A stretch of 64,000 nucleotides of DNA from Ilumatobacteraceae bacterium (GTDB taxonomy: Bacteria; Actinomycetota; Acidimicrobiia; Acidimicrobiales; Ilumatobacteraceae), in the NCBI GenBank assembly GCA_041685755.1, contig JAWLFC010000003.1, positions 26 to 64,025 of the forward strand, read 5' to 3'. The notes beneath the pieces are model-generated. The model was not told where the DNA came from. It saw nothing but the letters and a program-made list of their open reading frames with translations, and searched no databases. Every line of letters begins with the position of its first letter. The first letter of the stretch is position 1. The position numbers and the translations under genes are program-made. Positions 5,909 through 59,603 of the stretch are shown piece by piece.

Positions 5909-6834
5909 CAGTCGACCAGCGTCCGTCCGGTGAGTCGCAGGAACACGTCTTCGAGCGACGCCCGCCGCACGAGCGAACCGACGGGATCGAGGCCACGTCG
6001 GTGCACCTCGGCGAGCGCTCCGTCGCCGTCGTGGACGTAGATCAGGATCCGATCGGGCAGCGTCTCGACGCGGTCGCCGATGCCCTCGACGTCCGGGGCG
6101 AACGTCTCGGCGTCACCGACCGGGAACCGCAACTCGAGGACCTCACGGGTGGCGTGCTGGTCGATCAGGGAACGTGGTGACCCCTCGGCGACGATCCGTC
6201 CCCGATCCATCACGACGAGCCGGTCGCAGAGCTGCTCGGCCTCGTCCATGTAGTGGGTGGTGAGCACGAGCGTGACCCCGTCCTGCTTGAGCCGGTACAG
6301 ACGGTCCCACAGGATGTGGCGGGCCTGGGGGTCGAGCCCGGTCGTCGGCTCGTCGAGCAGCAGCAGATCGGGGTCGCTCATCAGCGACCGGGCGATCGTG
6401 AGCCGGCGCTTCATCCCTCCCGACAGCGGGTCGACGAGGTCGTCGGAGCGCTCGCCGAGCTGCACGAAGTCGAGCAGCTCACCGGCCCGTCGCCGCGATT
6501 CACGACGGGAGAGGTCGAAGTAGCGGCCGTAGATGACGAGGTTCTCCATCACGGTCAGCTCGGGGTCGAGCTGGTCGGCCTGGGGAACCACGCCCATGCG
6601 GGCCCGGATGGCCGAACCGTCGTGGCCGGGGTCGAGGTCGAAGATCCGCAGGTGCCCGGCGGTGATCGGCGAGACGCAACCGATCATGCGCATCGTCGAG
6701 GTCTTGCCGGCGCCGTTCGGGCCGAGGAACCCGAAGGACTCTCCCTGCTCGACGTCGAAGTCGATCCCGTCGACCGCCACGAAGTCGCCGAACTCCTTGC
6801 GCAGGTCGCGAGCGGAGATCACGGCGGCGGACAC
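5908..6834 (-). CDS. ABC transporter ATP-binding protein (DrrA/NodI-like exporter ATPase)
   Basis: Walker A GPNGAGKTST, signature LSGGMKRRL, Walker B LLLLDEPT. GTG start at 6834. Confidence 0.9.
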   Translation of the reverse strand: MSAAVISARDLRKEFGDFVAVDGIDFDVEQGESFGFLGPNGAGKTSTMRMIGCVSPITAGHLRIFDLDPGHDGSAIRARMGVVPQADQLDPELTVMENLVIYGRYFDLSRRESRRRAGELLDFVQLGERSDDLVDPLSGGMKRRLTIARSLMSDPDLLLLDEPTTGLDPQARHILWDRLYRLKQDGVTLVLTTHYMDEAEQLCDRLVVMDRGRIVAEGSPRSLIDQHATREVLELRFPVGDAETFAPDVEGIGDRVETLPDRILIYVHDGDGALAEVHRRGLDPVGSLVRRASLEDVFLRLTGRTLVD

Positions 6835-29369: not shown

Positions 29370-30848
29370 CTAACCGAGCAGGGCGGCGACGACCGGCTCG
29401 AGGATCTGCTCCACGATGACCACGTTCCCGACACCGAGGGCCAGCACCGCCACGGCCAACGCCACGACCGGGATCACGACGGCCGTCGCCGGTTCACCGA
29501 CCTGTTCGGCGGCCTCGGCATCGACCGGCGGGCGGAACCACACCAGCTCCAACACCCGCAGGAAGTAGAGCAGGGTGAGCACGCTGGCGCCGACGACGAC
29601 GAGGCCGATCACCCACCGGTCGGCCTCCACCGCACCCGAGACCAGGTACCACTTCGAGACGAAGCCGGCCGTCGGCGGCAGGCCGACCATCGAGATCGCC
29701 GCCACCGTGAATGCCGCCATCGTGATCGGCATGCGCTGTCCGAGACCGGCGTAGCCGGCGATCTTCTTGGTGCGCGCCTGCTCGAGCACACCGCCCGCCA
29801 CGAAGAACATGCACGCCTTCATCGCGGCATGGTTCACCACGTGCAGCAGCGCACCGATCAACGCCATCCGGGTGCCGAGCCCGATCCCGACCGCGATGTA
29901 GCCGAGCTGTGCCACCGTCGAGTGGGCGAGCATCCGCTTGACGTCGTCCTGGCGGATCGCCATCACCGACCCCACGACGATGCCCGCCGCACCGAACCAC
30001 GTCAGCATCGTCATCACGGGCAACTGGTCGGTGACGTAGCCGGTCGGGAACACGTCGAGCAGGATCCGGATCAGCGCATACGCCGCCACCTTCACCTGGA
30101 CGGCGGCGAGGAGTGCAGCCACCGCCGGCGGCGCGTGGCTGTGCGCGTCCGGAAGCCACACGTGCAACGGGAAGATCGCCATCTTCGTGCCCAGGCCGAT
30201 GACGATCAAGGCCACGGCGGCGGCCGTGGTGGGCGAGTCGGTGAGCTGCTCCAGCGCCGGGCCGACGGAGTCCATGCCGAGCGACCCGGTCGTGAAGTAC
30301 ACGAAGCCCACACCGAGCAGGTAGAGGCTGCTGCCCATGGTGCCGATCAGGAGGTAGCGATAGCTCGCAACGGCCGCGGCAGGACCCCCGAGCGCGATCA
30401 GTGCGTACGACGCGATCGAATAGATCTCGAGGCTGACGAACAGGTTGAACAGGTCGCCCGTGACCGCCACACCGAACAGCGCACCGAGCAGCAGGAGCAC
30501 CAGGGGGTAGACGACGACACCGCGCTCGGGCTCGACACCGAAGCCGGTGACGGTCGGGTAGACGACGACGAGCAACCCGATGACGCCGATGAGGACGGCA
30601 ACGAAACCCGAGAGCGGGTCGAGCACGTACTCGATGCCGAGCGGCTGGGCCCAGCCACCCATCGCGTGGCGGAGCTCGCCGTGGTCCAGCACCCGCAGCA
30701 GACCCCACGACGCCAGCACCGTCGCGAGGGCCATCGTCGCCGCGGCGACCCACTGCGCAGCCCGAGGCCGGAACAGGGCCGCGACGGTGGCCACGACCGC
30801 CCCGGTGAAGGGCACCATCGGCAACAGCGCCGGGATCGCGGAGTTCAT
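29370..30848 (-). CDS. MrpD/NuoN-like antiporter subunit (third D-like gene of non-canonical cluster)
   Basis: 492-aa polytopic ORF. Motifs LFNLFVSLEIYSIASYALI, HVWLPDAHSHAP and VNHAAMKACMFF. 4-nt overlap with the upstream gene. Confidence 0.85.
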   Translation of the reverse strand: MNSAIPALLPMVPFTGAVVATVAALFRPRAAQWVAAATMALATVLASWGLLRVLDHGELRHAMGGWAQPLGIEYVLDPLSGFVAVLIGVIGLLVVVYPTVTGFGVEPERGVVVYPLVLLLLGALFGVAVTGDLFNLFVSLEIYSIASYALIALGGPAAAVASYRYLLIGTMGSSLYLLGVGFVYFTTGSLGMDSVGPALEQLTDSPTTAAAVALIVIGLGTKMAIFPLHVWLPDAHSHAPPAVAALLAAVQVKVAAYALIRILLDVFPTGYVTDQLPVMTMLTWFGAAGIVVGSVMAIRQDDVKRMLAHSTVAQLGYIAVGIGLGTRMALIGALLHVVNHAAMKACMFFVAGGVLEQARTKKIAGYAGLGQRMPITMAAFTVAAISMVGLPPTAGFVSKWYLVSGAVEADRWVIGLVVVGASVLTLLYFLRVLELVWFRPPVDAEAAEQVGEPATAVVIPVVALAVAVLALGVGNVVIVEQILEPVVAALLG

Positions 30849-31258
30849 GCGCCGGCTCCTCCGCTCGCGCCGTCTCCTCCGCTGGCGCCGTCTTCGGCGT
30901 CACGCAGCGAGAGGGCCGCATCGTCGAGCGTGCCGAACGCCCGGCGGATCACCACGATGAGCGCGAGCGCCACGCCGATCACCGCCACGCCGACGACCAA
31001 CGCGGTGAGGATGAGCAGGTGCGGCAACGGGTTGACGTAGGCATCCGGATCGGGGCCGACCGCCGGGTCGATGACGGGGACGTCGCCGTCGACGCGCACG
31101 CTGCCCTCGATGAAGAACAGGAACACCGCCGTCTGGAACAGGACGAGACCGACGAGCTTCTTGACCAGGTGCCGCTCGGTCAGCATGGCGAACAGCCCGA
31201 GCGAGAGCAGTCCGACGACGAACAGGTAGACGTAGCGATCGGCGATGAGCTCGAACAT
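30845..31258 (-). CDS. MrpC/NuoK-like subunit
   Basis: Last 137 aa of ORF 30845..31861: MFELIADRYVYLFVVGLLSLGLFAMLTERHLVKKLVGLVLFQTAVFLFFI. Gly/Asp-rich tail. Start shares 1 nt with the upstream stop. Confidence 0.8.
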   Translation of the reverse strand: MFELIADRYVYLFVVGLLSLGLFAMLTERHLVKKLVGLVLFQTAVFLFFIEGSVRVDGDVPVIDPAVGPDPDAYVNPLPHLLILTALVVGVAVIGVALALIVVIRRAFGTLDDAALSLRDAEDGASGGDGASGGAGA

Positions 31259-31695
31259 CAGCGCCTCACCTGGGCCGACAGCCGGTCGAAGATCGACAGG
31301 ATCCCTCCGAACACCACGGCGCCGACGCCGAACTCGACGATCATGATGCCGAGGTATCGACGCCGCGAGTCCGTCGCAGAACCGACGTCGACCGCCGCGT
31401 AGTCGAGCAGTTGCCCACCGAACAGCATCGGCACCAACGCCGACAGCAGGAACACCGACATCCCCACGACGAGCGCCAGGGTCCCGACGATCGGCGGGAA
31501 CACCCGATCGACCAGCTTCGGGTCGATCGTCAAGCGCGCGAGCACCACCCCGACGGCGAGCACGACCCCGCCGGCGAAGCCACCGCCGGGCCCGTAGTGA
31601 CCGTGCGCGATGACGTAGACGCCGAACACACCGATGAACGGCATGGTGAGGGCCGCGACGACCCGCACGTTCTCGCTCGGGTGCCGGCCGATCAC
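31258..31695 (-). CDS. MrpB-like subunit
   Basis: Last 145 aa of ORF 31258..32295. MnhB-type motif HGHYGPGGGFAGGVVLA. GTG 31695 overlaps the upstream stop. Confidence 0.8.
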   Translation of the reverse strand: MIGRHPSENVRVVAALTMPFIGVFGVYVIAHGHYGPGGGFAGGVVLAVGVVLARLTIDPKLVDRVFPPIVGTLALVVGMSVFLLSALVPMLFGGQLLDYAAVDVGSATDSRRRYLGIMIVEFGVGAVVFGGILSIFDRLSAQVRR

Positions 31696-32222
31696 GACGT
31701 CGACCTCCGGCGGAGCACCAGCGTCGCGGCGAGGGCCGCGGTGAACACGACGAGCGTCTCGCCGAGCGTGTCGAGCGACCGGTAGTCGGCGAGGACCGCC
31801 GTGACGACGTTCGGTGTCTCGCTGTCGGTGATCGACCGCTCGAGGAACTCGCGGGCCACACCCTGATGGGCGGGCGCGTCCGGATCTCCGCGATCGGGCA
31901 GATCGACGCTCGCCACGAGCAGGAGCCCGGCGAACAGCAGGGTGCACGGCCCGGCGATCCAGACCGCGCGACGATCCCGGCCCGCCGGACGGTCGCCGGT
32001 GGCGAAGACGGCGACGAGCAGGAGCACGCCGACGAACGCCGAGCCGAGCACCGCCTCGACGAACGCGACGTCGGGCGCGCCCATCCCGGCGAACAACAGG
32101 GCGACGAACAGGCTGAAGGCGGCGAGCACGGCGACGGTGGCGATCATCGACCGCACCCAGACCGCCACGACGGCACAGGCCATCAGCAGCGTGAGCAGCA
32201 ACAGATCCAGCTGCCAGGTCAT
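31692..32222 (-). CDS. MrpA C-terminal-region-like (DUF4040-type) membrane subunit
   Basis: 176 aa. PNVVTAVLADYRSLDTLGETLVVF parallels NVVNVILTDTRALDTLGEVIVLL at the C-terminus of the canonical MrpA in this window. Confidence 0.75.
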   Translation of the reverse strand: MTWQLDLLLLTLLMACAVVAVWVRSMIATVAVLAAFSLFVALLFAGMGAPDVAFVEAVLGSAFVGVLLLVAVFATGDRPAGRDRRAVWIAGPCTLLFAGLLLVASVDLPDRGDPDAPAHQGVAREFLERSITDSETPNVVTAVLADYRSLDTLGETLVVFTAALAATLVLRRRSTS

Positions 32223-32563
32223 CGGTGATCCTCGGCATCATCGCTGTGCAGCTCGCCGTTCGAGTCCGCTGCATCCTCGTCGACCCCGCCGCCACCGCGC
32301 AGCGCGCTGCGCGCCAACGCGTGGATCGCCGTCGGATTGACCAGCAACGAGAACGCCGCGATCAGCACGAGCTGCAGGCTCCCCGGCCCGAAGCGGTTCA
32401 GGACGACGAGACCCATGAACACGAGCACGAGGCCGAGTGTCTCGGCCTTGGCCACGGCATGGGCGCGCGTCCAGAAGTCGGGAAACCGGATCAGGCCGAG
32501 CGCGCTGATCATCAGGAATGCGGTCCCTGCGATGAGGAGCGCCGCCGCGATGACGTCGGTCAC
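32219..32563 (-). CDS. MrpG-like subunit
   Basis: Last 114 aa of ORF 32219..33166: LGLIRFPDFWTRAHAVAKAETLG. GTGA overlap. Confidence 0.8.
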   Translation of the reverse strand: MTDVIAAALLIAGTAFLMISALGLIRFPDFWTRAHAVAKAETLGLVLVFMGLVVLNRFGPGSLQLVLIAAFSLLVNPTAIHALARSALRGGGGVDEDAADSNGELHSDDAEDHR

Positions 32564-32826
32564 GGCGACTTCCTCGACTCGAGGTAGCGGGCGAACGCGA
32601 GCGGGAACAGGAAGGCCAGCAGCGCGTACGACAACCCGATGTCGACGAACAGTTCGGGCCGACCGAAGATGAAGCCGATCAGCATCAGCAGCACGACGCT
32701 CGACACCGCCCCGAACGAGCTCGACAGGAGTCGATCGATCACGGTCGGGCCGCGGGCGACACCGATCACCGCGGTGATGGTCAGACCTCCGACCACGAAC
32801 GCGAGCACGAGCAGCAGACCGGTCAC
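32560..32826 (-). CDS. MrpF-like subunit
   Basis: Last 88 aa of ORF 32560..33858. Three TMs and ARGPTVIDRLLS. GTGA overlap. Confidence 0.75.
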   Translation of the reverse strand: MTGLLLVLAFVVGGLTITAVIGVARGPTVIDRLLSSSFGAVSSVVLLMLIGFIFGRPELFVDIGLSYALLAFLFPLAFARYLESRKSP

Positions 32827-33383
32827 GACAGTTCTCCCCGGTTGACGAGATCGAGGTCGAGCGGCGGCTGCGGGCCCTCGAGGAAGATCCCGGCGATCTT
32901 GTTCTGGAGTCGACCGGACACGAGGTCCTGCACCTGCGCCGGCGACAACGCGTGGACGAGGATGTCCTGGCCCTCGATGTCGACGGTGAGCGTGCCCGGC
33001 ACGAGCGAGATCGAGTTGGCGAGTGTGGCGCGTGCCAGCGGGCTGCGCAGCTCGGTACGGAAGCGGACAGAGCACGGATCCAGCGGCATCGTCGGCGACA
33101 GCACGATCCGCGCCAGCTGGACGCTGGCGACGAGGATCCGGCCGGCCATCCACACCACGAACGCACCGGCCCGCACGACCGCCACCGGGATGCGCCGGAT
33201 CGCGACGTGGTCGCGGTCGGGCCGCAGACACACCCCGACGATGCGCGAGGTGAGCGCGGTGACGACGAGGGCGGCGATGGCCCCGGTCACCAGGAACAGC
33301 GGCTCGGTCCGGCCGGACAACGCGAACCAGAACGCGAACAGCGACACCGCCTGGACGATCGTGGTCCGTCGGACGTGCCCCAT
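32823..33383 (-). CDS. MrpE-like subunit
   Basis: Last 186 aa of ORF 32823..33584: VSLFAFWFALSGRTEPLFLVTG...GTLTVDIEG. ATG shares 1 nt with the upstream stop. Confidence 0.75.
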   Translation of the reverse strand: MGHVRRTTIVQAVSLFAFWFALSGRTEPLFLVTGAIAALVVTALTSRIVGVCLRPDRDHVAIRRIPVAVVRAGAFVVWMAGRILVASVQLARIVLSPTMPLDPCSVRFRTELRSPLARATLANSISLVPGTLTVDIEGQDILVHALSPAQVQDLVSGRLQNKIAGIFLEGPQPPLDLDLVNRGELS

Positions 33384-35056
33384 CACCGCACCACCACCGT
33401 GAGAGCCAGGACGAACACCATGGCGCCGGCGATGGTGCCGCCGAGCACCCAGCCCGGCGCCACCGTCCCGCCGAGCCCCGGCAACGCTCCCCGCCGCCAC
33501 GCGGCCGGCACCGTCGGCAATGCCGGGCGAGGCAGCGACGCCACGACCGCGCCGACGCGCGGACCGAGACGCGGACCGAGCCACACGGGGAGCTCGCGGT
33601 AGACGACATCGGTGTCGAGGCTGGTGGTCGCCTTCGGCGTGAGTCGTGCCCGTAGCACGACGAACGCGATCGCCGTGACACCGAGCAGGACGGTCGACTC
33701 GACGAGCTTGCCGGCGGTGTAGGGAACGAAGGGCTCGGGTGCCGGCAACAGGTCGAACAGCAGCGACGGGCGCAGTCCGATCGCGATGTTGGCGATCGCG
33801 GCGACGCCCATCGCCACGTACATCGTCGCCGGGATCCGCTGGACGGACACCGGCTCACGGGCAGGACCGAACCACGTGAACGCCGGAAGCTTGAGCGCGA
33901 CGCTCAGGAAGGTGCCCACCGAGGCGAGCTTCAGCAGCCACTGGGCCACGGACTCACCACCGGCGCCGATCGACGACACGGCGAGCTCCTTGGCGGGGAA
34001 CCCGCTGAACCCGGCCAGCCCCGAGATCGAGAGCGCGCCGACCATGTACAACACGAGGACGATCGGCAGCGCCCCGCGCAGACCACCCAGCTGCGAGGTA
34101 CGGCTGCGACCCGTCGCGTACACCACCGCACCGGCACCCATGAGCAGTAGCCCCTTGTACAGCACGTGCGCCGTCGCGTGGGCGGTCGCGCCGTTGACCG
34201 CGGCGGCCGTGCCGACGCCGATCGCCGCGACCATGAACCCGACCTGGCTGACGATGTGATAGCTGAGCAGACGACGGATGTCGTCTTCGAGGATGGCGAA
34301 CACGACGCCGAACAGCGCCATGACGACGCCGATCCAGATCAGCAGGTCGAGACCGGGGAACCCGCGCGCCAACGCGTAGACCGCCGACTTGGTGGTGAAC
34401 GCGCTGAGCAGGACGGTGGCCGCGACCGTCGCCGTGGGGTACGTGTCCGGGAGCCAGGCGTGCAACGGCACCGCCGCCGCCGACACGAGGAAACCCGTCA
34501 GGACGAGCGATGTCGGTCCGGTGAGCTCGAGTCCCTCGAACTGCAACGAACCCGTCGAGACGTGGTGCCACATCACCCCACCGAGCAGCACGACGCCGCC
34601 GACGAGGTGGACCGGCAGGTACCTCGTCGCCGCCGCACTCGACACGGCGCGGCGACGGGCGAGCACGAGCAGGACCACCGTGGTGACCTTCAGCTCCCAG
34701 AAGAAGAACAGCGTGAGGAGATCACCGGCGAGGACGACGCCGATGGCCGCTCCCGCGGTGGCCAGGCCGGCGACGCGCTCGAGCGTGCCCATGGTCGACC
34801 AGCCGAACACCGCGCCGAGCAGCATGATCGAGGCGAAGACGAGGGCGAAGGGTCGCGCCAGCCCGTCGAAACGCATGGTGGTGAGTTCGATGCCGTAGAA
34901 GTCGTAGGTCGCCGTCGCGCCGAGTGGCAGGCCAACCGTGACGAGCAGCGCGAGGGCGGCAACGGCCACCGTCGTGACGGCCCCGAACCGGCGGGGCACC
35001 ATCGCGACGACCAGGGCACCGACCAGCAGCACGAACGCCGGACTGAACTCAGGCAT
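33383..35056 (-). CDS. MrpD/MrpA-like antiporter subunit with ~100-aa C-terminal extension
   Basis: Last 557 aa of ORF 33383..35179. Motifs FFFWELKV, HAWLPDTYP, TTKSAVYAL and HVLYKGLLLMG. The extension ends in a TM helix (GTIAGAMVFVLALTVVV). Confidence 0.85.
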   Translation of the reverse strand: MPEFSPAFVLLVGALVVAMVPRRFGAVTTVAVAALALLVTVGLPLGATATYDFYGIELTTMRFDGLARPFALVFASIMLLGAVFGWSTMGTLERVAGLATAGAAIGVVLAGDLLTLFFFWELKVTTVVLLVLARRRAVSSAAATRYLPVHLVGGVVLLGGVMWHHVSTGSLQFEGLELTGPTSLVLTGFLVSAAAVPLHAWLPDTYPTATVAATVLLSAFTTKSAVYALARGFPGLDLLIWIGVVMALFGVVFAILEDDIRRLLSYHIVSQVGFMVAAIGVGTAAAVNGATAHATAHVLYKGLLLMGAGAVVYATGRSRTSQLGGLRGALPIVLVLYMVGALSISGLAGFSGFPAKELAVSSIGAGGESVAQWLLKLASVGTFLSVALKLPAFTWFGPAREPVSVQRIPATMYVAMGVAAIANIAIGLRPSLLFDLLPAPEPFVPYTAGKLVESTVLLGVTAIAFVVLRARLTPKATTSLDTDVVYRELPVWLGPRLGPRVGAVVASLPRPALPTVPAAWRRGALPGLGGTVAPGWVLGGTIAGAMVFVLALTVVVR

Positions 35057-35243
35057 CGTCGACCTCCCCGGTCCGGGCGTCCGCGGGCGCATCGACGAGG
35101 TCGTCCCGCGGGTCACCGAGTTCACCGGCGCGGGTTCCGGCGGGACGGGACACGACGGCCGACCCGAGCCACTTGGCACCGATCACGAGCACGACCGACG
35201 CGGCCATCGCGAAGACCCCGATGATCACGGCGTCGACGATCAT
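35049..35243 (-). CDS. 64-aa single-TM protein embedded in Mrp-like cluster
   Basis: Last 64 aa of ORF 35049..36383: MIVDAVIIGVFAMAASVVLVIGAKWLG plus an acidic tail. ATGA overlap with the upstream D-like gene and 8-nt overlap with the downstream one. Confidence 0.55.
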   Translation of the reverse strand: MIVDAVIIGVFAMAASVVLVIGAKWLGSAVVSRPAGTRAGELGDPRDDLVDAPADARTGEVDDA

Positions 35244-36727
35244 GGCGTCACCCCGACGACGGCCCGAGCCACCGCGTTCGTGAGCTGACCGATCGCGACG
35301 ACGTCGCCGAGGCCGAGCACCACGCCGAGTACCGCAGTCGTCACGATCGGCACGAGCATCGCGGGGACGGCGTCGGTGCGCACGGTGGTGGGGCCGGCGA
35401 AGGCGTCCGAGCTCCGGAAGAACGCCCGGTGCACGATCGGCAACAGGTATCCGGCGGTGAGCAGACCGCTGCCGATCACGATCACGGCGAGCACCGGCTG
35501 GTCGGCCTCGATCGTTCCCGAACCGAGGAACCACTTGCTGACGAACCCCCCGACCGGCGGCAGCCCGGCCAGGCCCAGCGCCGCGACCCCGAACGCTGCC
35601 ATCGTGACGGGCATCCTCCGGCCGATGCCGTCCAACTGCGACACCCGGTCGACGCCGGTGGTGACGTAGATCGCCCCGGCGGCGAAGAACAGGGTGATCT
35701 TCAGTACGGCATGGTTCGCGAGGTGCAGCAGCGCCCCGTTCCACGCCGAGGCCGACAGCAGTGAGACACCGAGCACGATGTAGGAGAGATGGGCGATGGT
35801 GGAGTAGGCCAGCCGACGCTTCAGCTGGTCCTGCCGGAACGCCATGACCGACGCGGTCACGATGGTGGCCCCCGCCAGCACGGCCACCACGAGACCGATG
35901 CCGATGTCGGCCATTCGCTCGGGACCGATCACGTAGCCGAACATCCGGACGAAGCCGAACACCCCGGCCTTGACGACCGCGACCGCGTGCAGCAGCGCGC
36001 TGACCGGCGTCGGGGCGACCATGGCGGTGGGAAGCCATCCGTGCAGTGGCATGACGGCCGCCTTCGTCCCGAAGCCGAAGAACGCCAGCACGACCAGGGC
36101 GATCACCATCGTGTCGCTCACCGCCCCCGTGGCGGCGTCGCCGAGCACGCCACCGGCGGTGAAGGTCGCCGTCGGCACGGTGTACTGCACGATCGCGACC
36201 GCCAGCAGCAACGCCGTCCCGCCACCGAGCAGCGTCAGCAGGTATCGCTTGCCGGCGGCGAACGCGGCGGGCGTCTGCTTGTGCACCACGAGCGGGTAGG
36301 TGGCGAGCGTCAGCAACTCGTAGAACACGAAGAACGTGAACAGGTTCCCGGCGAACGCCAGACCCATCGTGGTCGACACGCACAGGGCGAAGGTCGCGAA
36401 GAAGCGGGTGAGGTGTTGCTCACCGGCTCCGGCCACGTACCCGAACGAGTACGAGGAAGCCAGGATCCAGAGGGCGGCCGCCGAGAGGGCGAAGACCATG
36501 CCGGCGGCATCCACCCGCAACAGGAGTTCGACGCCCGGCGCCAACTCGCCGAGTCGACGGGTGGGCTCGTGCCCGTCGAGCACCTGCGGCAGCATCGCGA
36601 CCACCAGCGCGAACGTCGTGAGCGCCGCCACCGCCGTCCACAGCACGCGCAGGCGGTGCCGATCGCCCGAGAGGGCGATGGCGACAGCGCCGACGAGCGG
36701 CGTGAGGACGGCAAGGACAGCAAGCAT
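35240..36727 (-). CDS. MrpD/NuoM-like antiporter subunit (first gene of non-canonical cluster)
   Basis: 495-aa polytopic ORF. Motifs NLFTFFVFYELLTLATYPLV, HGWLPTAMVAPTP and ANHAVLKITLFF. Confidence 0.85.
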   Translation of the reverse strand: MLAVLAVLTPLVGAVAIALSGDRHRLRVLWTAVAALTTFALVVAMLPQVLDGHEPTRRLGELAPGVELLLRVDAAGMVFALSAAALWILASSYSFGYVAGAGEQHLTRFFATFALCVSTTMGLAFAGNLFTFFVFYELLTLATYPLVVHKQTPAAFAAGKRYLLTLLGGGTALLLAVAIVQYTVPTATFTAGGVLGDAATGAVSDTMVIALVVLAFFGFGTKAAVMPLHGWLPTAMVAPTPVSALLHAVAVVKAGVFGFVRMFGYVIGPERMADIGIGLVVAVLAGATIVTASVMAFRQDQLKRRLAYSTIAHLSYIVLGVSLLSASAWNGALLHLANHAVLKITLFFAAGAIYVTTGVDRVSQLDGIGRRMPVTMAAFGVAALGLAGLPPVGGFVSKWFLGSGTIEADQPVLAVIVIGSGLLTAGYLLPIVHRAFFRSSDAFAGPTTVRTDAVPAMLVPIVTTAVLGVVLGLGDVVAIGQLTNAVARAVVGVTP

Positions 36728-50970: not shown

Positions 50971-51843
50971 TCAGGTGTCGCTGGGTGGCGGGTACTCGGG
51001 GAACCAGAGGGTGCGCTGCGGGAACGGGATCGTGATGTCGGCGTCGCGGAGACCGGCGTCGACGGCGAGCGCCACGTTGCTCTTCGTGCGCCAGTGCTCG
51101 GCGATGGTCGGCAGATGCCAGAACCGGACGACGAAATCGACCGACGAGTCACCGAAACCGTCGACGAGTACCTCCGGGGTCGGCCAACCGACCACGCCGT
51201 CAGCGGCTCGAACGGCCTCGATGAGCACGACGGTCGCCAGCGCGAGATCGGTGCCGTAGGCGACGCCGACCTCGAGCGTGGTGCGGCGCAGGCCGTGCTC
51301 GGTGTAGTTGTTCAGATCCGACTTGATCACCGTCGAGGCCGGGATCTTGACCGTCTCACCGTCGGGCGTCGTGATCGTCACGAGCCGGGCACCGATGTCG
51401 CGCACGGTGCCCTCGTGCTCGTTGATCGCCACCTGGTCGCCGTAGGTGAACGGACGCTGCAACTGCAGCAGGATGCCGGCGATGAAGTTCTCCAGGATGT
51501 CGCGGAACGCGAACGCCAGGGCGATACCGATGATGCCCAGCGCACCGAGCAGCGGACCGATGGCCACCCCGAGCGACTCGAGACTGTAGACGAGCGCGAA
51601 GACGACCACGGCGTAGCCGACGAGCCGACCGACCAGAGCGGCGAGCGCGGCGTCGACGCGCCGCTGCAGCATTCTGTTGATCAGCCACTTGAGGACGATG
51701 GCCGCGACGACGCCGCCGGCGAGCACCAAACCGGCCGTCGCCCACGACCACCCGTCGATACCATCACCGGCGAAGGCGTCGGCGAGAGCGTCGGTGTCGA
51801 CGTCGGTGTCGGTCTGCCCGGGCCACAGGGCACCGGCGCGCAT
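50971..51843 (-). CDS. small-conductance mechanosensitive channel (MscS family)
   Basis: Motifs GALGIIGIALAFAFRDILENFIAGILLQLQRPF and GTVRDIGARLVTITTPDGETVKIP. 290 aa. Confidence 0.9.
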   Translation of the reverse strand: MRAGALWPGQTDTDVDTDALADAFAGDGIDGWSWATAGLVLAGGVVAAIVLKWLINRMLQRRVDAALAALVGRLVGYAVVVFALVYSLESLGVAIGPLLGALGIIGIALAFAFRDILENFIAGILLQLQRPFTYGDQVAINEHEGTVRDIGARLVTITTPDGETVKIPASTVIKSDLNNYTEHGLRRTTLEVGVAYGTDLALATVVLIEAVRAADGVVGWPTPEVLVDGFGDSSVDFVVRFWHLPTIAEHWRTKSNVALAVDAGLRDADITIPFPQRTLWFPEYPPPSDT

Positions 51844-51845
51844 GC

Positions 51846-52139
51846 TCAGTCCTCGGCGGGGAGTTCGGAGACGTTGCCCTCGGGTCCGGGGAACTCGTCG
51901 CCGTCGAAGCCCTGGTTCTCGACCTCGTTGGTGTCGGTGTCGACACCCTCGGGCACATCGGGGTCGAACGGTACGTCGCCGTCGTCCAGAATCGTGGAGT
52001 CGACGTCATCGACCTCGTTGGAATCGTCGTCGCAGGCACCCACGGCGAGCGCGGAGGCGGCGAGCAGTCCGACGGTGAGGGTGACACGCAACATGTTCGG
52101 GGGGTACCCGGTCGGGCGGCGCCGAAACCGCCGCGGCAC
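51846..52139 (-). CDS. small acidic lipoprotein (candidate)
   Basis: Signal peptide plus lipobox LLAASALAVGA-C. The mature 62 aa have 24 Asp/Glu and no Lys/Arg/His. Start is GTG 52139 or ATG 52094. Stop abuts the MscS start. Confidence 0.6.
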   Translation of the reverse strand: MPRRFRRRPTGYPPNMLRVTLTVGLLAASALAVGACDDDSNEVDDVDSTILDDGDVPFDPDVPEGVDTDTNEVENQGFDGDEFPGPEGNVSELPAED

Positions 52140-52153
52140 CGCCCGACGTCAGC

Positions 52154-52342
52154 TCACTCCTCGACTTCCTCCTCGATCTCGTCGCCGACGTCCTCGAGGT
52201 CCTCCTCGACCTCGTCGATGCCGTCGTCGATGTCCTGCTCGATGTCGTCGTCATCGTCGTCGTCGCATGCGACGACGCCCAACGACAGGGTGGCGACTGC
52301 CGAGGCGGCGATGATCCTGTGCGTGATGCTGGTTCTCCTCAT
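52154..52342 (-). CDS. small extremely acidic lipoprotein (candidate)
   Basis: MRRTSITHRIIAASAVATLSLGVVA-C (lipobox), then 37 aa with 25 Asp/Glu and no basic residue (CDDDDDDDIEQDIDDGIDEVEEDLEDVGDEIEEEVEE). Confidence 0.6.
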   Translation of the reverse strand: MRRTSITHRIIAASAVATLSLGVVACDDDDDDDIEQDIDDGIDEVEEDLEDVGDEIEEEVEE

Positions 52343-52380
52343 GCGCTCGCCGGTACCCGAACGGCGCGATGGGGAAACGC

Positions 52381-52764
52381 TCAGTCGTGGAGCATGTCGA
52401 GCAGCTCGCCGACGGTGTGCTGGCCCTCGAGGGGGTGGCGCAGCGGCGTGCGGTCGATGATCTCGTAGTGGTTCCGACGACCGATCTTCTCGCGACGGAG
52501 GTAGCCGGCCTCCTCGAGGTCGTCGAGGATGCGCTGGACGGCGCCGGGCGTGATGCCGACCACGTAGCTGAGGTCGCGCTGGCGGAGGTCGGGGTCACGG
52601 CTGAGTGCGACCATGACGTGCGCGTGGTTCGTCAGGAAGGTCCACGACGGGAGGTCGGGTTTCGGTTCGATCAGCGTCACCACACGATTATACGTATTGG
52701 AAGACGTATGTTGCCCGGGTGGATTCGTGCTGGTGTTCATGATGGAGTGAACGACGCTGTTCAC
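52381..52764 (-). CDS. winged helix-turn-helix transcriptional regulator (MarR/ArsR-like)
   Basis: Motif LRQRDLSYVVGITPGAVQRILDDLEEAGYLRREKIGRRNHY. GTG 52764 overlaps the mrpG stop (GTGA); ATG 52740 is the alternative. Confidence 0.7.
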   Translation of the reverse strand: MNSVVHSIMNTSTNPPGQHTSSNTYNRVVTLIEPKPDLPSWTFLTNHAHVMVALSRDPDLRQRDLSYVVGITPGAVQRILDDLEEAGYLRREKIGRRNHYEIIDRTPLRHPLEGQHTVGELLDMLHD

Positions 52765-58754: not shown

Positions 58755-59603
58755 ATGTCCTCAGCATCTGCCACGCGCTCGACGACCACTCCGACGACCA
58801 CTGCGCCGGGCCGTCGACACCGCGTCGACCGACGGGCACTGTTGACCGCGCAGGACGAGCGCACGCTCTCCAAGGCGATCGAGGCGGGGCGTGACGCCGC
58901 CCAGCGCATCGCCGACGGCGCCGCCCGTCACGGCGATGACGAACTGGTCGTCGCCGCCGAGGCGGCCCGCCATCACTTCATCGAGGCCAACATCCGGCTG
59001 GTGCAGAGCATCGCCAACAAGTTCAGCGTCCCCGCCCACCTCGACCGCGAGGACATCGTCCAGGACGGCATGATCGGGCTCGACAAGGCCGTCGAGAAGT
59101 TCGACTGGCGCCGCGGCTACAAGTTCTCCACCTACGCCACGTGGTGGATCCGTCAGTCGATCCAGCGCGGGCTCGAGGCGTCGGCCACGACGATCCGCAT
59201 CCCGGGCCATCGCAGCCGCGAGCTCCGGACCGCGGCGGCTGCCAACCCGGGGCGCCTCCCCGACGAACTGGCAATGGTCGACATGTTGACCCAGCTCGAA
59301 TCGATGGACCGGCCGCTGGGTGACGGCCACGACACGCTCGGCACGATGGTCGCGAGCGACGACGACGGGCCCGACGAGGTCGCCGAGCGCAACGTGCAAC
59401 GCGAGAAGATCGACGCCCTGCTCGAGCACCTCGATGCCACCAGCCAGTATGCAGTCGCCGCCCGGTTCGGGCTCCGCGGTCACGAGCCGGTCACGTTCGC
59501 GGTCATCGCCGAAGAACTCGGCGTCACCCCGCAGGCGGTGCGGCGGCGCGTCGAACGGGCGATCGCCAAGCTGCGCTCGCACGCCGAGCCCATCGCCGCC
59601 TGA
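58755..59603 (+). CDS. sigma-70 family RNA polymerase sigma factor (group 2/3-like, regions 2-4)
   Basis: Motifs ANIRLVQSIANKF, DIVQDGMIGLDKAVEKFD, FSTYATWWIRQSIQR and a C-terminal HTH (FAVIAEELGVTPQAVRR). Confidence 0.9.
   Translation: MSSASATRSTTTPTTTAPGRRHRVDRRALLTAQDERTLSKAIEAGRDAAQRIADGAARHGDDELVVAAEAARHHFIEANIRLVQSIANKFSVPAHLDREDIVQDGMIGLDKAVEKFDWRRGYKFSTYATWWIRQSIQRGLEASATTIRIPGHRSRELRTAAAANPGRLPDELAMVDMLTQLESMDRPLGDGHDTLGTMVASDDDGPDEVAERNVQREKIDALLEHLDATSQYAVAARFGLRGHEPVTFAVIAEELGVTPQAVRRRVERAIAKLRSHAEPIAA

Follow-up and report, generated by a model that had tools for sequence, protein, structure and literature searches.

Two small acidic lipoprotein-type genes with SigB/SigF-type promoter-like elements beside the mrp operon in Ilumatobacteraceae

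A tandem gene pair between mrp and mscS

A 64,000-nucleotide stretch of DNA from an Ilumatobacteraceae bacterium (contig JAWLFC010000003.1, positions 26 to 64,025 of the forward strand; G+C 69%), referred to here as the window, was analyzed around two short genes, orfA and orfB, which encode very acidic proteins with lipoprotein-type signal peptides. A sequence-only reading of the same DNA had described them as a tandem wedged between the mrpA-G genes with their regulator and a gene for an MscS channel. Their coordinates, orientation and position were borne out, and both open reading frames (ORFs) lie on the minus strand. The genes of the locus are as follows, with sizes in nucleotides (nt) or amino acids (aa).

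52154..52342, minus strand: orfA, predicted 62-aa prolipoprotein; signal peptide 1-25, Cys26 codon at 52265-52267, mature part 37 aa
51846..52094, minus strand: orfB, predicted 82-aa prolipoprotein; signal peptide 1-20, Cys21 codon at 52032-52034, mature part 62 aa
52761..58678, minus strand: mrpA-B-C-D-E-F-G, Na+(cation)/H+ antiporter operon, assigned by Pfam (MrpG/F/E/D/C) and by gene calls at the syntenic locus L006
52761-53135, minus strand: mrpG, the last mrp subunit gene
52381..52764, minus strand: MarR-like winged-helix regulator (Pfam), overlapping mrpG at its 3' end and closing the mrp transcription unit
50971..51843, minus strand: MscS-type mechanosensitive channel (Pfam), starting 2 nt past the orfB stop

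The order along transcription is mrpA-G, marR, orfA, a 59-nt spacer, orfB, 2 nt and mscS. The stop codon of orfB (TGA, 51846-51848) does abut the mscS start codon (ATG, 51841-51843), with a gap of 2 nt, and this junction suggests that mscS is probably co-transcribed and translationally coupled with orfB. A fused cydDC ABC transporter gene converges from the other side of the locus, with cydA and cydB beyond it.

The orfA product consists of MRRTSITHRIIAASAVATLSLGVVAC followed by DDDDDDDIEQDIDDGIDEVEEDLEDVGDEIEEEVEE, and the orfB product of MLRVTLTVGLLAASALAVGAC followed by DDDSNEV...ELPAED. Recounting gave 25 Asp or Glu residues (D/E) in the 37 aa of mature orfA and 24 in the 62 aa of mature orfB, exactly as claimed earlier, and the run of seven Asp directly after the orfA Cys is present. 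Proteins of the window are mildly acidic in general (median isoelectric point 5.5, 12% D/E, 8.6% Lys/Arg), and the two products are extreme acidity outliers among them; no other ORF of the window combines a lipobox with at least 28% D/E.

Signal peptides were assessed by a classical lipobox rule of the PROSITE PS51257 type, which requires [LIVMFWSTAG]2-[LIVMFYSTAGCQ]-[AGS]-C without charge in the six positions before the pattern, a positively charged n-region (Arg within the first seven residues), an uncharged hydrophobic h-region and a Cys at about position 15-35. Both N-termini satisfy it, in agreement with the signal peptides first proposed: orfA has R2, R3 and R9, the h-region IIAASAVATLSLGVVA and Cys26, and orfB has R3, the h-region VTLTVGLLAASALAVGA and Cys21. 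The rule was passed by 73 of 80 orfB-family sequences, the seven failures being N-terminally truncated or near misses, and all seven orfA homologues carry ...LS(L/V)G(A/V/F)VAC. Judging from these signals, we infer that both products are exported and lipid-modified at the lipobox Cys.

Purifying selection on both genes

Gene callers applied to independent assemblies called exactly these two ORFs, and their G+C content at third codon positions (0.905 for orfA, 0.855 for orfB) is like that of the neighboring genes. A syntenic relative, represented by loci L006-L010 from Joint Genome Institute (JGI) metagenomes, has the same order of sigma factor gene, mrp, marR, orfA, orfB, mscS, cydDC and cydBA. 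Compared with L006, the ratio of non-synonymous to synonymous substitution rates (dN/dS) is 0.20 for orfA and 0.27 for orfB, against 0.12 for MscS, 0.25 for MarR and 0.055 for MrpD. Third codon positions hold 12 of the 17 differences in orfA and 23 of the 36 in orfB. The best-conserved part of orfA is its signal peptide, with seven synonymous changes and one non-synonymous change (dN/dS 0.04). Changes in the acidic tails are D/E and I/L/V swaps at constant length. Both orfA and orfB are thus real genes under purifying selection with homologues in relatives, not an unconserved, untranslated spacer, the outcome that would have spoken against the original proposal.

A 406-aa ORF on the plus strand (51094-52314), antisense to mscS, orfB and orfA, was rejected as a high-GC shadow ORF because substitutions relative to the related locus sit on third positions of the minus-strand frames.

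Two protein families outside the curated collections

Neither orfA nor orfB has a match in Pfam (E<=0.01) or NCBIfam, and no PDB sequence was matched by an orfB-family profile. An Rfam search gave only a chance microRNA match (E 0.11), and literature searches on acidic lipoproteins, or on Ilumatobacter with Mrp or MscS, returned nothing relevant. The earlier statement that no such family has been described therefore stands with respect to Pfam, NCBIfam and PDB, and by sequence comparison the two genes represent two small-protein families outside all curated families.

For orfB, a word-index search found 12 relatives with 62-81% identity, and an exhaustive profile search of 1.84 billion representative sequences returned 26 clusters at 50% identity. 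Their members have 60-95 aa, apart from one spurious match (P0020), a 4323-aa Thr/Ser/Cys-rich mucin-like protein, which was discarded. The 65 proteins listed by a second profile search range from 54 to 108 aa and none has a Pfam domain. Where these proteins are named at all they are 'hypothetical protein', and the only taxon labels found are Ilumatobacteraceae (Acidimicrobiia). Pattern-based scans of genome and metagenome collections returned only two and three loci, respectively, and for one family member (P0015) no contig location was found.

Members of the orfB family share a signal peptide, the Cys, an acidic stretch and the pattern (D/N)VPFDxxVxxGV(D/E)TxT(D/N)ExxNxGF(D/E)x(D/E)xPGPxGNxxxP, in which VPFDxxV, GVDTxT(D/N)E, NxGF(D/E) and PGPxGN are the conserved motifs. 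D/E make up a median of 33% of the mature part. Both mature parts in the window lack Lys, Arg and His, as first observed; this absence of basic residues does not extend to the whole orfB family, where only 24 of 73 members lack them. AlphaFold2, run with a 26-sequence alignment, produced only the signal-peptide helix (mean predicted local distance difference test score, pLDDT, 66), and the mature part is predicted to be a disordered chain that carries conserved linear motifs. An EF-hand, TSP3 or DxDxDG calcium motif was considered for orfB and rejected, as there is no Pfam match at E<=0.01 and ligand positions are unconserved; in GVDTxT(D/N)E the would-be ligand position 3 varies (P, S, E, G) and position 6 is not Gly.

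Homologues of orfA were harder to find by sequence. The word-index search gave two relatives only, and further genes were recognized by synteny, directly upstream of the orfB homologue in L017, L018, L019 and L014/L015, which brings the total to seven lineages. They share ...AASAVAxLSLG(A/V)VAC-DDDD..., after which come repeats rich in D/E, for example DDVEEGVDDV. The seven-Asp run itself is unconserved, the relatives having DDEDDDE or DDDDNDG. The acidic tail of orfA in the window is encoded by a tandem repeat found with Tandem Repeats Finder (TRF).

52158..52262, minus strand: 33-nt (11-residue) tandem repeat, about 2.8 copies with 79-81% matches, encoding the acidic tail of orfA

In this mature part I, V or L occurs every 3-4 residues, and only 2 of the 37 residues are Gly. 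I, V, L and F are the only hydrophobic residues in the seven homologues, and in all of these they recur every 3-4 positions, with a peak of periodicity at 98-102 degrees, as in an alpha-helix. In five homologues all 5000 shuffles stayed below the observed value, and p<0.01 was obtained in the other two. AlphaFold2 gave no confident structure for orfA (mean pLDDT 58), which is expected because the polar face of the helix would be entirely acidic. From these predictions, orfA may be an acidic amphipathic-helix former built of 11-residue repeats and disordered on its own. The first 44 residues of orfA and orfB align at 43% identity (pairwise E=1e-5), and from this similarity the two are probably old paralogues.

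Gene order in other lineages

The constant partner of the two genes is the mrp-marR unit. In all 11 distinct lineages with flanking sequence the genes follow mrpA-G-marR, and in five of them otsA, for trehalose-6-phosphate synthase, lies between. The arrangements at the window and at the loci labeled L004 to L019 are listed below.

Window and L006: marR-orfA-orfB-mscS
L011 and L016: marR-orfB-mscS
L012/L013: marR-otsA-orfB-mscS
L005: marR-otsA-orfB, without mscS
L004: marR-orfB, without mscS
L014: orfA-orfB, without mscS; the contig starts inside orfA, so that mrp-marR is out of view
L015: orfA-orfB, then a gene starting 2 nt past the stop; the contig is too short for mrp-marR
L017 and L019: marR-otsA-orfA-orfB-Band_7
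L018: marR-orfA-orfB-Band_7

The gene downstream of orfB is mscS in six lineages and a Band_7/SPFH gene in three, while three more have neither of them. Any mscS at this place begins 2 nt past the stop codon of orfB, or 8 nt past it in L012, and the 2-nt junction also occurs in L006, L011, L016 and L015. OtsA, MscS and SPFH are hence variable members of the island. The two genes are closely linked to genes of ion and osmotic homeostasis, with mrp-marR rather than MscS as the invariable neighbor.

Several further features of these loci were noted. In L017 (6373-7958), L018 (6326-7905) and L019 (6392-7962) MscS is replaced by the Band_7/SPFH gene and an overlapping gene of 222-230 aa, whose product has one predicted hydrophobic segment and no Pfam match. 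A third small acidic ORF of the island, encoding a 79-80-aa protein without signal peptide (…DDEFPTHADADAERPVDEGLIEEEESEVV…), is flanked by MscS (or orfB) on one side and by a pyruvate:ferredoxin oxidoreductase-like gene on the other in L012 (7056-7295), L013 (3444-3683) and L005 (8201-8443). The closely related loci L012/L013 (6150-7010 in L012) and L005 (8150-8200) differ by the whole mscS gene after orfB, which suggests a recent loss, or an assembly difference in a metagenome-assembled genome (MAG).

The MarR-like regulator has no specific family match in Pfam or NCBIfam and is unusually conserved: of 99 C-terminal residues compared between the window and an Ilumatobacteraceae MAG, L004 (7318-7758), 97 are identical. 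For orfB, by comparison, the identity between the same two loci is no more than 66% across the segment that matched. The N-terminal segment of MscS (51739-51843 in the window), presumably external, is acidic and contains TDTDVDTD, and MscS of L012 has DVDTD at the matching segment (6159-6260). This stretch resembles the GVDTDT motif of orfB, which could be chance or a shared cation-binding feature.

These arrangements bear on the proposal that orfA and orfB are accessory subunits or modulators that dock on external parts of MscS, Band_7/SPFH or Mrp, with acidity secondary, where the orfB motifs and the hydrophobic face of orfA would tune gating, assembly or localization. The non-acidic motifs of orfB are invariant across 35-80% identity, the I/V/L stripe of orfA at a spacing of 3-4 is typical of a binding or coiled-coil helix, the distance from orfB to mscS is 2 nt in five lineages and 8 nt in another, and the pair was never found away from the mrp-marR neighborhood. 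However, the downstream gene varies, orfB persists without MscS, and orfA has been lost in five lineages that keep orfB and MscS or Mrp. The acidity of the external MscS N-terminus also makes direct electrostatic pairing improbable unless cations form a bridge. On balance we regard an accessory role as rather unlikely.

A common promoter-like element and putative leaderless starts

Directly upstream of each gene lies an element resembling promoters of the SigB/SigF type.

52353..52378, minus strand: promoter-like element of orfA; -35 GTTTCC at 52373-52378, 14-nt spacer, -10 GGGTAC at 52353-52358, 10 nt to the ATG
52104..52128, minus strand: promoter-like element of orfB; -35 GTTTCG at 52123-52128, 13-nt spacer, -10 GGGTAC at 52104-52109, 9 nt to the ATG

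When upstream DNA was aligned, the arrangement G(T)TTC(G)-N13-15-GGGTA(N)-N9-10-ATG was found in all 16 gene copies, namely the orfA homologues with upstream DNA (5/5) and the orfB homologues (11/11). GGGTA of the -10 box is invariant in the 16 copies, and G, T, T and C at positions 1, 3, 4 and 5 of the -35 box are present in 15-16 of them, with variable sequence between the boxes. The looser pattern GTTT-N15-18-GGGTA occurs exactly twice in the window, against 0.09 occurrences expected, and none of 100 shuffles reached two. Throughout 171 kilobases (kb), comprising the window and related loci, the promoter motif was found solely before orfA and orfB genes.

The consensus for Bacillus subtilis SigB is GTTTAA-N12-14-GGG(A/T)A(A/T) (PMC8346170). 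The mapped promoters of nine SigB homologues in Streptomyces coelicolor include SCO3167p, GTTTCG-N15-GGGTAC, and SCO1089p, GTTTCC-N13-GGGTAT, with start sites 8-9 nt after the -10 box, and these sigma factors have a major role in the osmotic stress response (PMC8346170). For comparison we used a SigB/SigF-type test derived from that source (PMC8346170), with a -35 box GTTT(A/C)N, a spacer of 12-15 nt, a -10 box GGG(T/A)A(N) and a start about 7-10 nt downstream. All 16 copies fit; the consensus comes from Bacillus and Streptomyces, and recognition in Ilumatobacteraceae is presumed. The likeness to SigB/SigF regulon promoters of Bacillus, Streptomyces and Mycobacterium extends to the GTTT(C) -35 box, the GGGTA(C/T/G) -10 box, the spacer of 13-15 nt and an expected start some 8-10 nt beyond the -10 box. 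Elsewhere, stress sigma factors control genes for mechanosensitive channels, RpoS in Escherichia coli and SigB for ykuT in B. subtilis.

The fixed distance of 9-10 nt from the -10 box to the ATG implies that the messenger RNAs (mRNAs) would be leaderless. Such a layout explains the absence of a Shine-Dalgarno sequence and fixes the start of orfB at 52094. An upstream GTG start for orfB (52139, 97 aa) was rejected in favor of the ATG at 52094, which is supported by the homologues, by the gene callers and by the promoter-like -10 box at 52104-52109. In L018 the called start of the orfB homologue (5959-6207), at 6001, is probably 14 codons too far downstream, because an in-frame ATG stands 10 nt past a GGGTAA box, the layout shared by all the other copies. 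The region searched yielded neither a sigma-70-type promoter nor a terminator with a U-tail. The idea that the two genes are a plain part of the mrp operon was not upheld, each having its own stress-type promoter-like element and the leaderless layout.

A promoter motif of the general or osmotic stress type is also what would be expected if orfA and orfB were extracytoplasmic protectants of the hydrophilin or late embryogenesis abundant (LEA) kind, induced by stress and hydrating or shielding the outer membrane surface during desiccation or hyperosmotic stress alongside trehalose. The presence of otsA (Glyco_transf_20) directly upstream of the genes in five lineages, the predicted disorder of both proteins and the 11-residue repeats of orfA with their amphipathic-helix periodicity agree with this idea; 11 residues is the repeat length typical of group-3 LEA proteins. 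In its tandem repeats, its 3-4-4 hydrophobic spacing and the disorder predicted for the isolated protein, orfA resembles group-3 LEA proteins, alpha-synuclein and apolipoproteins. Unlike these, its polar face is all acidic without Lys, it matches no family, and it carries export and lipid-anchor signals. LEA 11-mers are Lys-rich and zwitterionic whereas orfA and orfB are purely acidic, and no LEA or hydrophilin match was obtained in Pfam or NCBIfam. The scarcity of Gly in mature orfA also argues against such a protectant, for which a Gly-rich and highly hydrophilic sequence would be expected, and trehalose made by OtsA is cytoplasmic while the two products would face outward. A protectant role appears distinctly unlikely.

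A hairpin between the two genes

A hairpin with a stem of 14 base pairs (bp) follows orfA and overlaps the promoter-like element of orfB.

52111..52147, minus strand: 14-bp GC-rich hairpin directly 3' of the orfA stop; its loop and 3' arm hold the -35 box and spacer of orfB; no U-tract

Hairpins of 12-18 bp were found at the orfA-orfB junction in all six lineages, with Z-scores from -2.3 to -6.6 and with the orfB -35 box in or beside the loop. Stem sequences differ among lineages, and wobble changes sit at different positions in the stems of the window and L006. The alignment-based consensus fold is weak, while single-sequence folds are strong in 6/6 lineages. No such hairpin was found upstream of orfA, or upstream of orfB where orfA is missing. 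Its position suggests that a monocistronic orfA transcript likely ends, or is terminated, at this hairpin, with orfB-mscS forming a second transcription unit. A function as MarR operator is unlikely, as the stems differ between lineages while MarR is almost invariant.

The hairpin also invites the explanation that the ORFs are non-functional as proteins, being instead upstream ORFs or leader peptides with a cis-regulatory task (an Asp/Glu-run sensor or attenuator, with the hairpin controlling mscS), or a GAC/GAG-rich spacer. Seven Asp codons in orfA and a strong hairpin just ahead of the next gene fit this scheme, and acidic runs are known to destabilize translating ribosomes in E. coli. Against it, the signal peptide of orfA is under strong purifying selection while the Asp run is not kept in relatives, in every lineage the hairpin is followed by a promoter-like element belonging to orfB, and the orfB motifs are conserved at the protein level. 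Moreover, orfB-mscS occurs without orfA, and no Rfam family was matched. A transcription-attenuation leader peptide in particular was rejected on the unconserved Asp run, the conserved signal peptide, the separate orfB promoter-like element and the presence of one hairpin only. We consider a regulatory or non-coding nature of the two ORFs highly improbable.

A possible layer of fixed charge at the membrane

The most economical reading is that orfA and orfB encode stress-induced, lipid-anchored polyanions that hold cations or protons at the membrane surface. We put it forward as a tentative proposal that could well be wrong. Each gene would be transcribed as a leaderless mRNA from its own promoter of an alternative sigma factor (SigB/SigF-type, general or osmotic stress), orfA as a monocistronic message ending at the hairpin, and orfB together with mscS, to which it would be translationally coupled. 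Both products would be exported, receive a lipid on the Cys of the lipobox and then be cut by signal peptidase II. What remains would be two intrinsically disordered polyanions without basic residues, 37 and 62 residues long and anchored on the outside of the cytoplasmic membrane. Stress from salt, alkali or osmotic change would lead to their production together with the adjacent Mrp, and with trehalose synthesis and MscS of the island. Their dense fixed negative charge may then attract and retain cations or protons through a Donnan or surface-potential effect, and this layer would support Na+/H+ exchange and ion homeostasis. The stress induction, the lipidation and the cation or proton function in this scheme are all read from sequence features.

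Some observations weigh against this proposal. Charge alone leaves the non-acidic motifs of orfB (VPFD, NQGF, PGPxGN) and the hydrophobic stripe of orfA unexplained; both point to specific contacts or to assembly, and they keep the accessory and protectant roles in play as serious rivals. A few basic residues are present in many members of the orfB family. This family is also uncommon, with taxon labels from one actinobacterial family only, and is therefore not a general requirement of Mrp or MscS function. As for the sigma factor, the only sigma gene in the window is a sigma-70 family gene (58755-59603, plus strand, 282 aa, with regions 2 and 4) divergent from mrpA and found at the same place in L006/L007. 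It scores 77 bits against the 234-bit cut-off of TIGR02980 SigBFG and falls below every NCBIfam subfamily cut-off, and no SigB/F/G-family sigma factor or Rsb partner was found in the window with NCBIfam.

A precedent for lipid-anchored acidic segments is the cytochrome c-550 of Evansella clarkii, whose acidic, Asn-rich and base-free N-terminal anchor segment was proposed as an 'H+ capacitor' (PMC12457358). The resemblance to c-550 of obligate alkaliphilic Bacillaceae lies in an acidic lipid-anchored segment which, according to that proposal, keeps protons or cations back for bioenergetics when pH and Na+ are high, conditions in which Mrp matters. In c-550 the segment links to a haem domain, whereas here nothing but the acidic chain makes up the mature protein; the sequences are not homologous, and the phylum differs, being Actinomycetota (Acidimicrobiia). 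The present genes moreover form a pair with their own stress-type promoter-like elements beside mrp. The capacitor role of c-550 is itself an unproven hypothesis, which also counts against leaning on it here.

Lipoteichoic acid, teichuronopeptide and the acidic SlpA of Gram-positive and alkaliphilic Bacillus species are fixed polyanions of the membrane or wall that are regarded as binding Mg2+, Na+ or H+ and as aiding pH and cation homeostasis alongside Mrp-type antiporters (in part PMC5938343). Those are glycopolymers or a large S-layer protein, in contrast to the ribosomal lipopeptides of 37 and 62 residues considered here, and the likeness is functional only. A bolder version, which we hold to be speculative and improbable, is that orfA and orfB form a lipid-anchored polyelectrolyte brush that takes the place of lipoteichoic acid in Ilumatobacteraceae. 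The brush would change its conformation with ionic strength, with divalent cations or with pH, and it would act as a cation or proton reservoir for Mrp and as a sensor of external ionic strength, biasing MscS or SPFH during osmotic shifts via lateral pressure in the outer leaflet or via microdomains. The all-acidic 11-mer helix of orfA would, as part of that proposal, fold or self-associate only upon charge neutralization.

A second Mrp/Mbh-like membrane cluster lies in the window at 29370-36727 (minus strand), with three Proton_antipo_M proteins (29370-30848, 33383-35179 and 35240-36727) and an MbhD/MbhE-like protein (31692-32222), so that the organism has two multisubunit antiporter-type loci within 30 kb.

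Implications

The scope of the finding is limited: both families are rare, and their known members, mostly metagenomic, come from a single actinobacterial family. A polyanion at the membrane surface is already a known theme; what is new is that stand-alone ribosomal lipopeptides occur as a pair with dedicated stress-type leaderless promoters, as predicted here, beside mrp. Whatever their function, the two genes add two new small-protein families and define a salt and osmotic stress island, mrp-marR-[otsA]-orfA-orfB-[mscS or SPFH]. They also provide a clean, invariant SigB-type promoter motif with putative leaderless starts in the little-studied Acidimicrobiia. If the peptides do set the ionic microenvironment, they would be a two-gene protein equivalent of teichoic-acid-type polyanions beside Mrp, trehalose synthesis and a mechanosensitive channel. 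A long-debated idea, put forward up to now chiefly for alkaliphilic Bacillus, would then become directly testable, namely that fixed charges on the cell surface hold back protons and cations for use by antiporters and in ATP synthesis.

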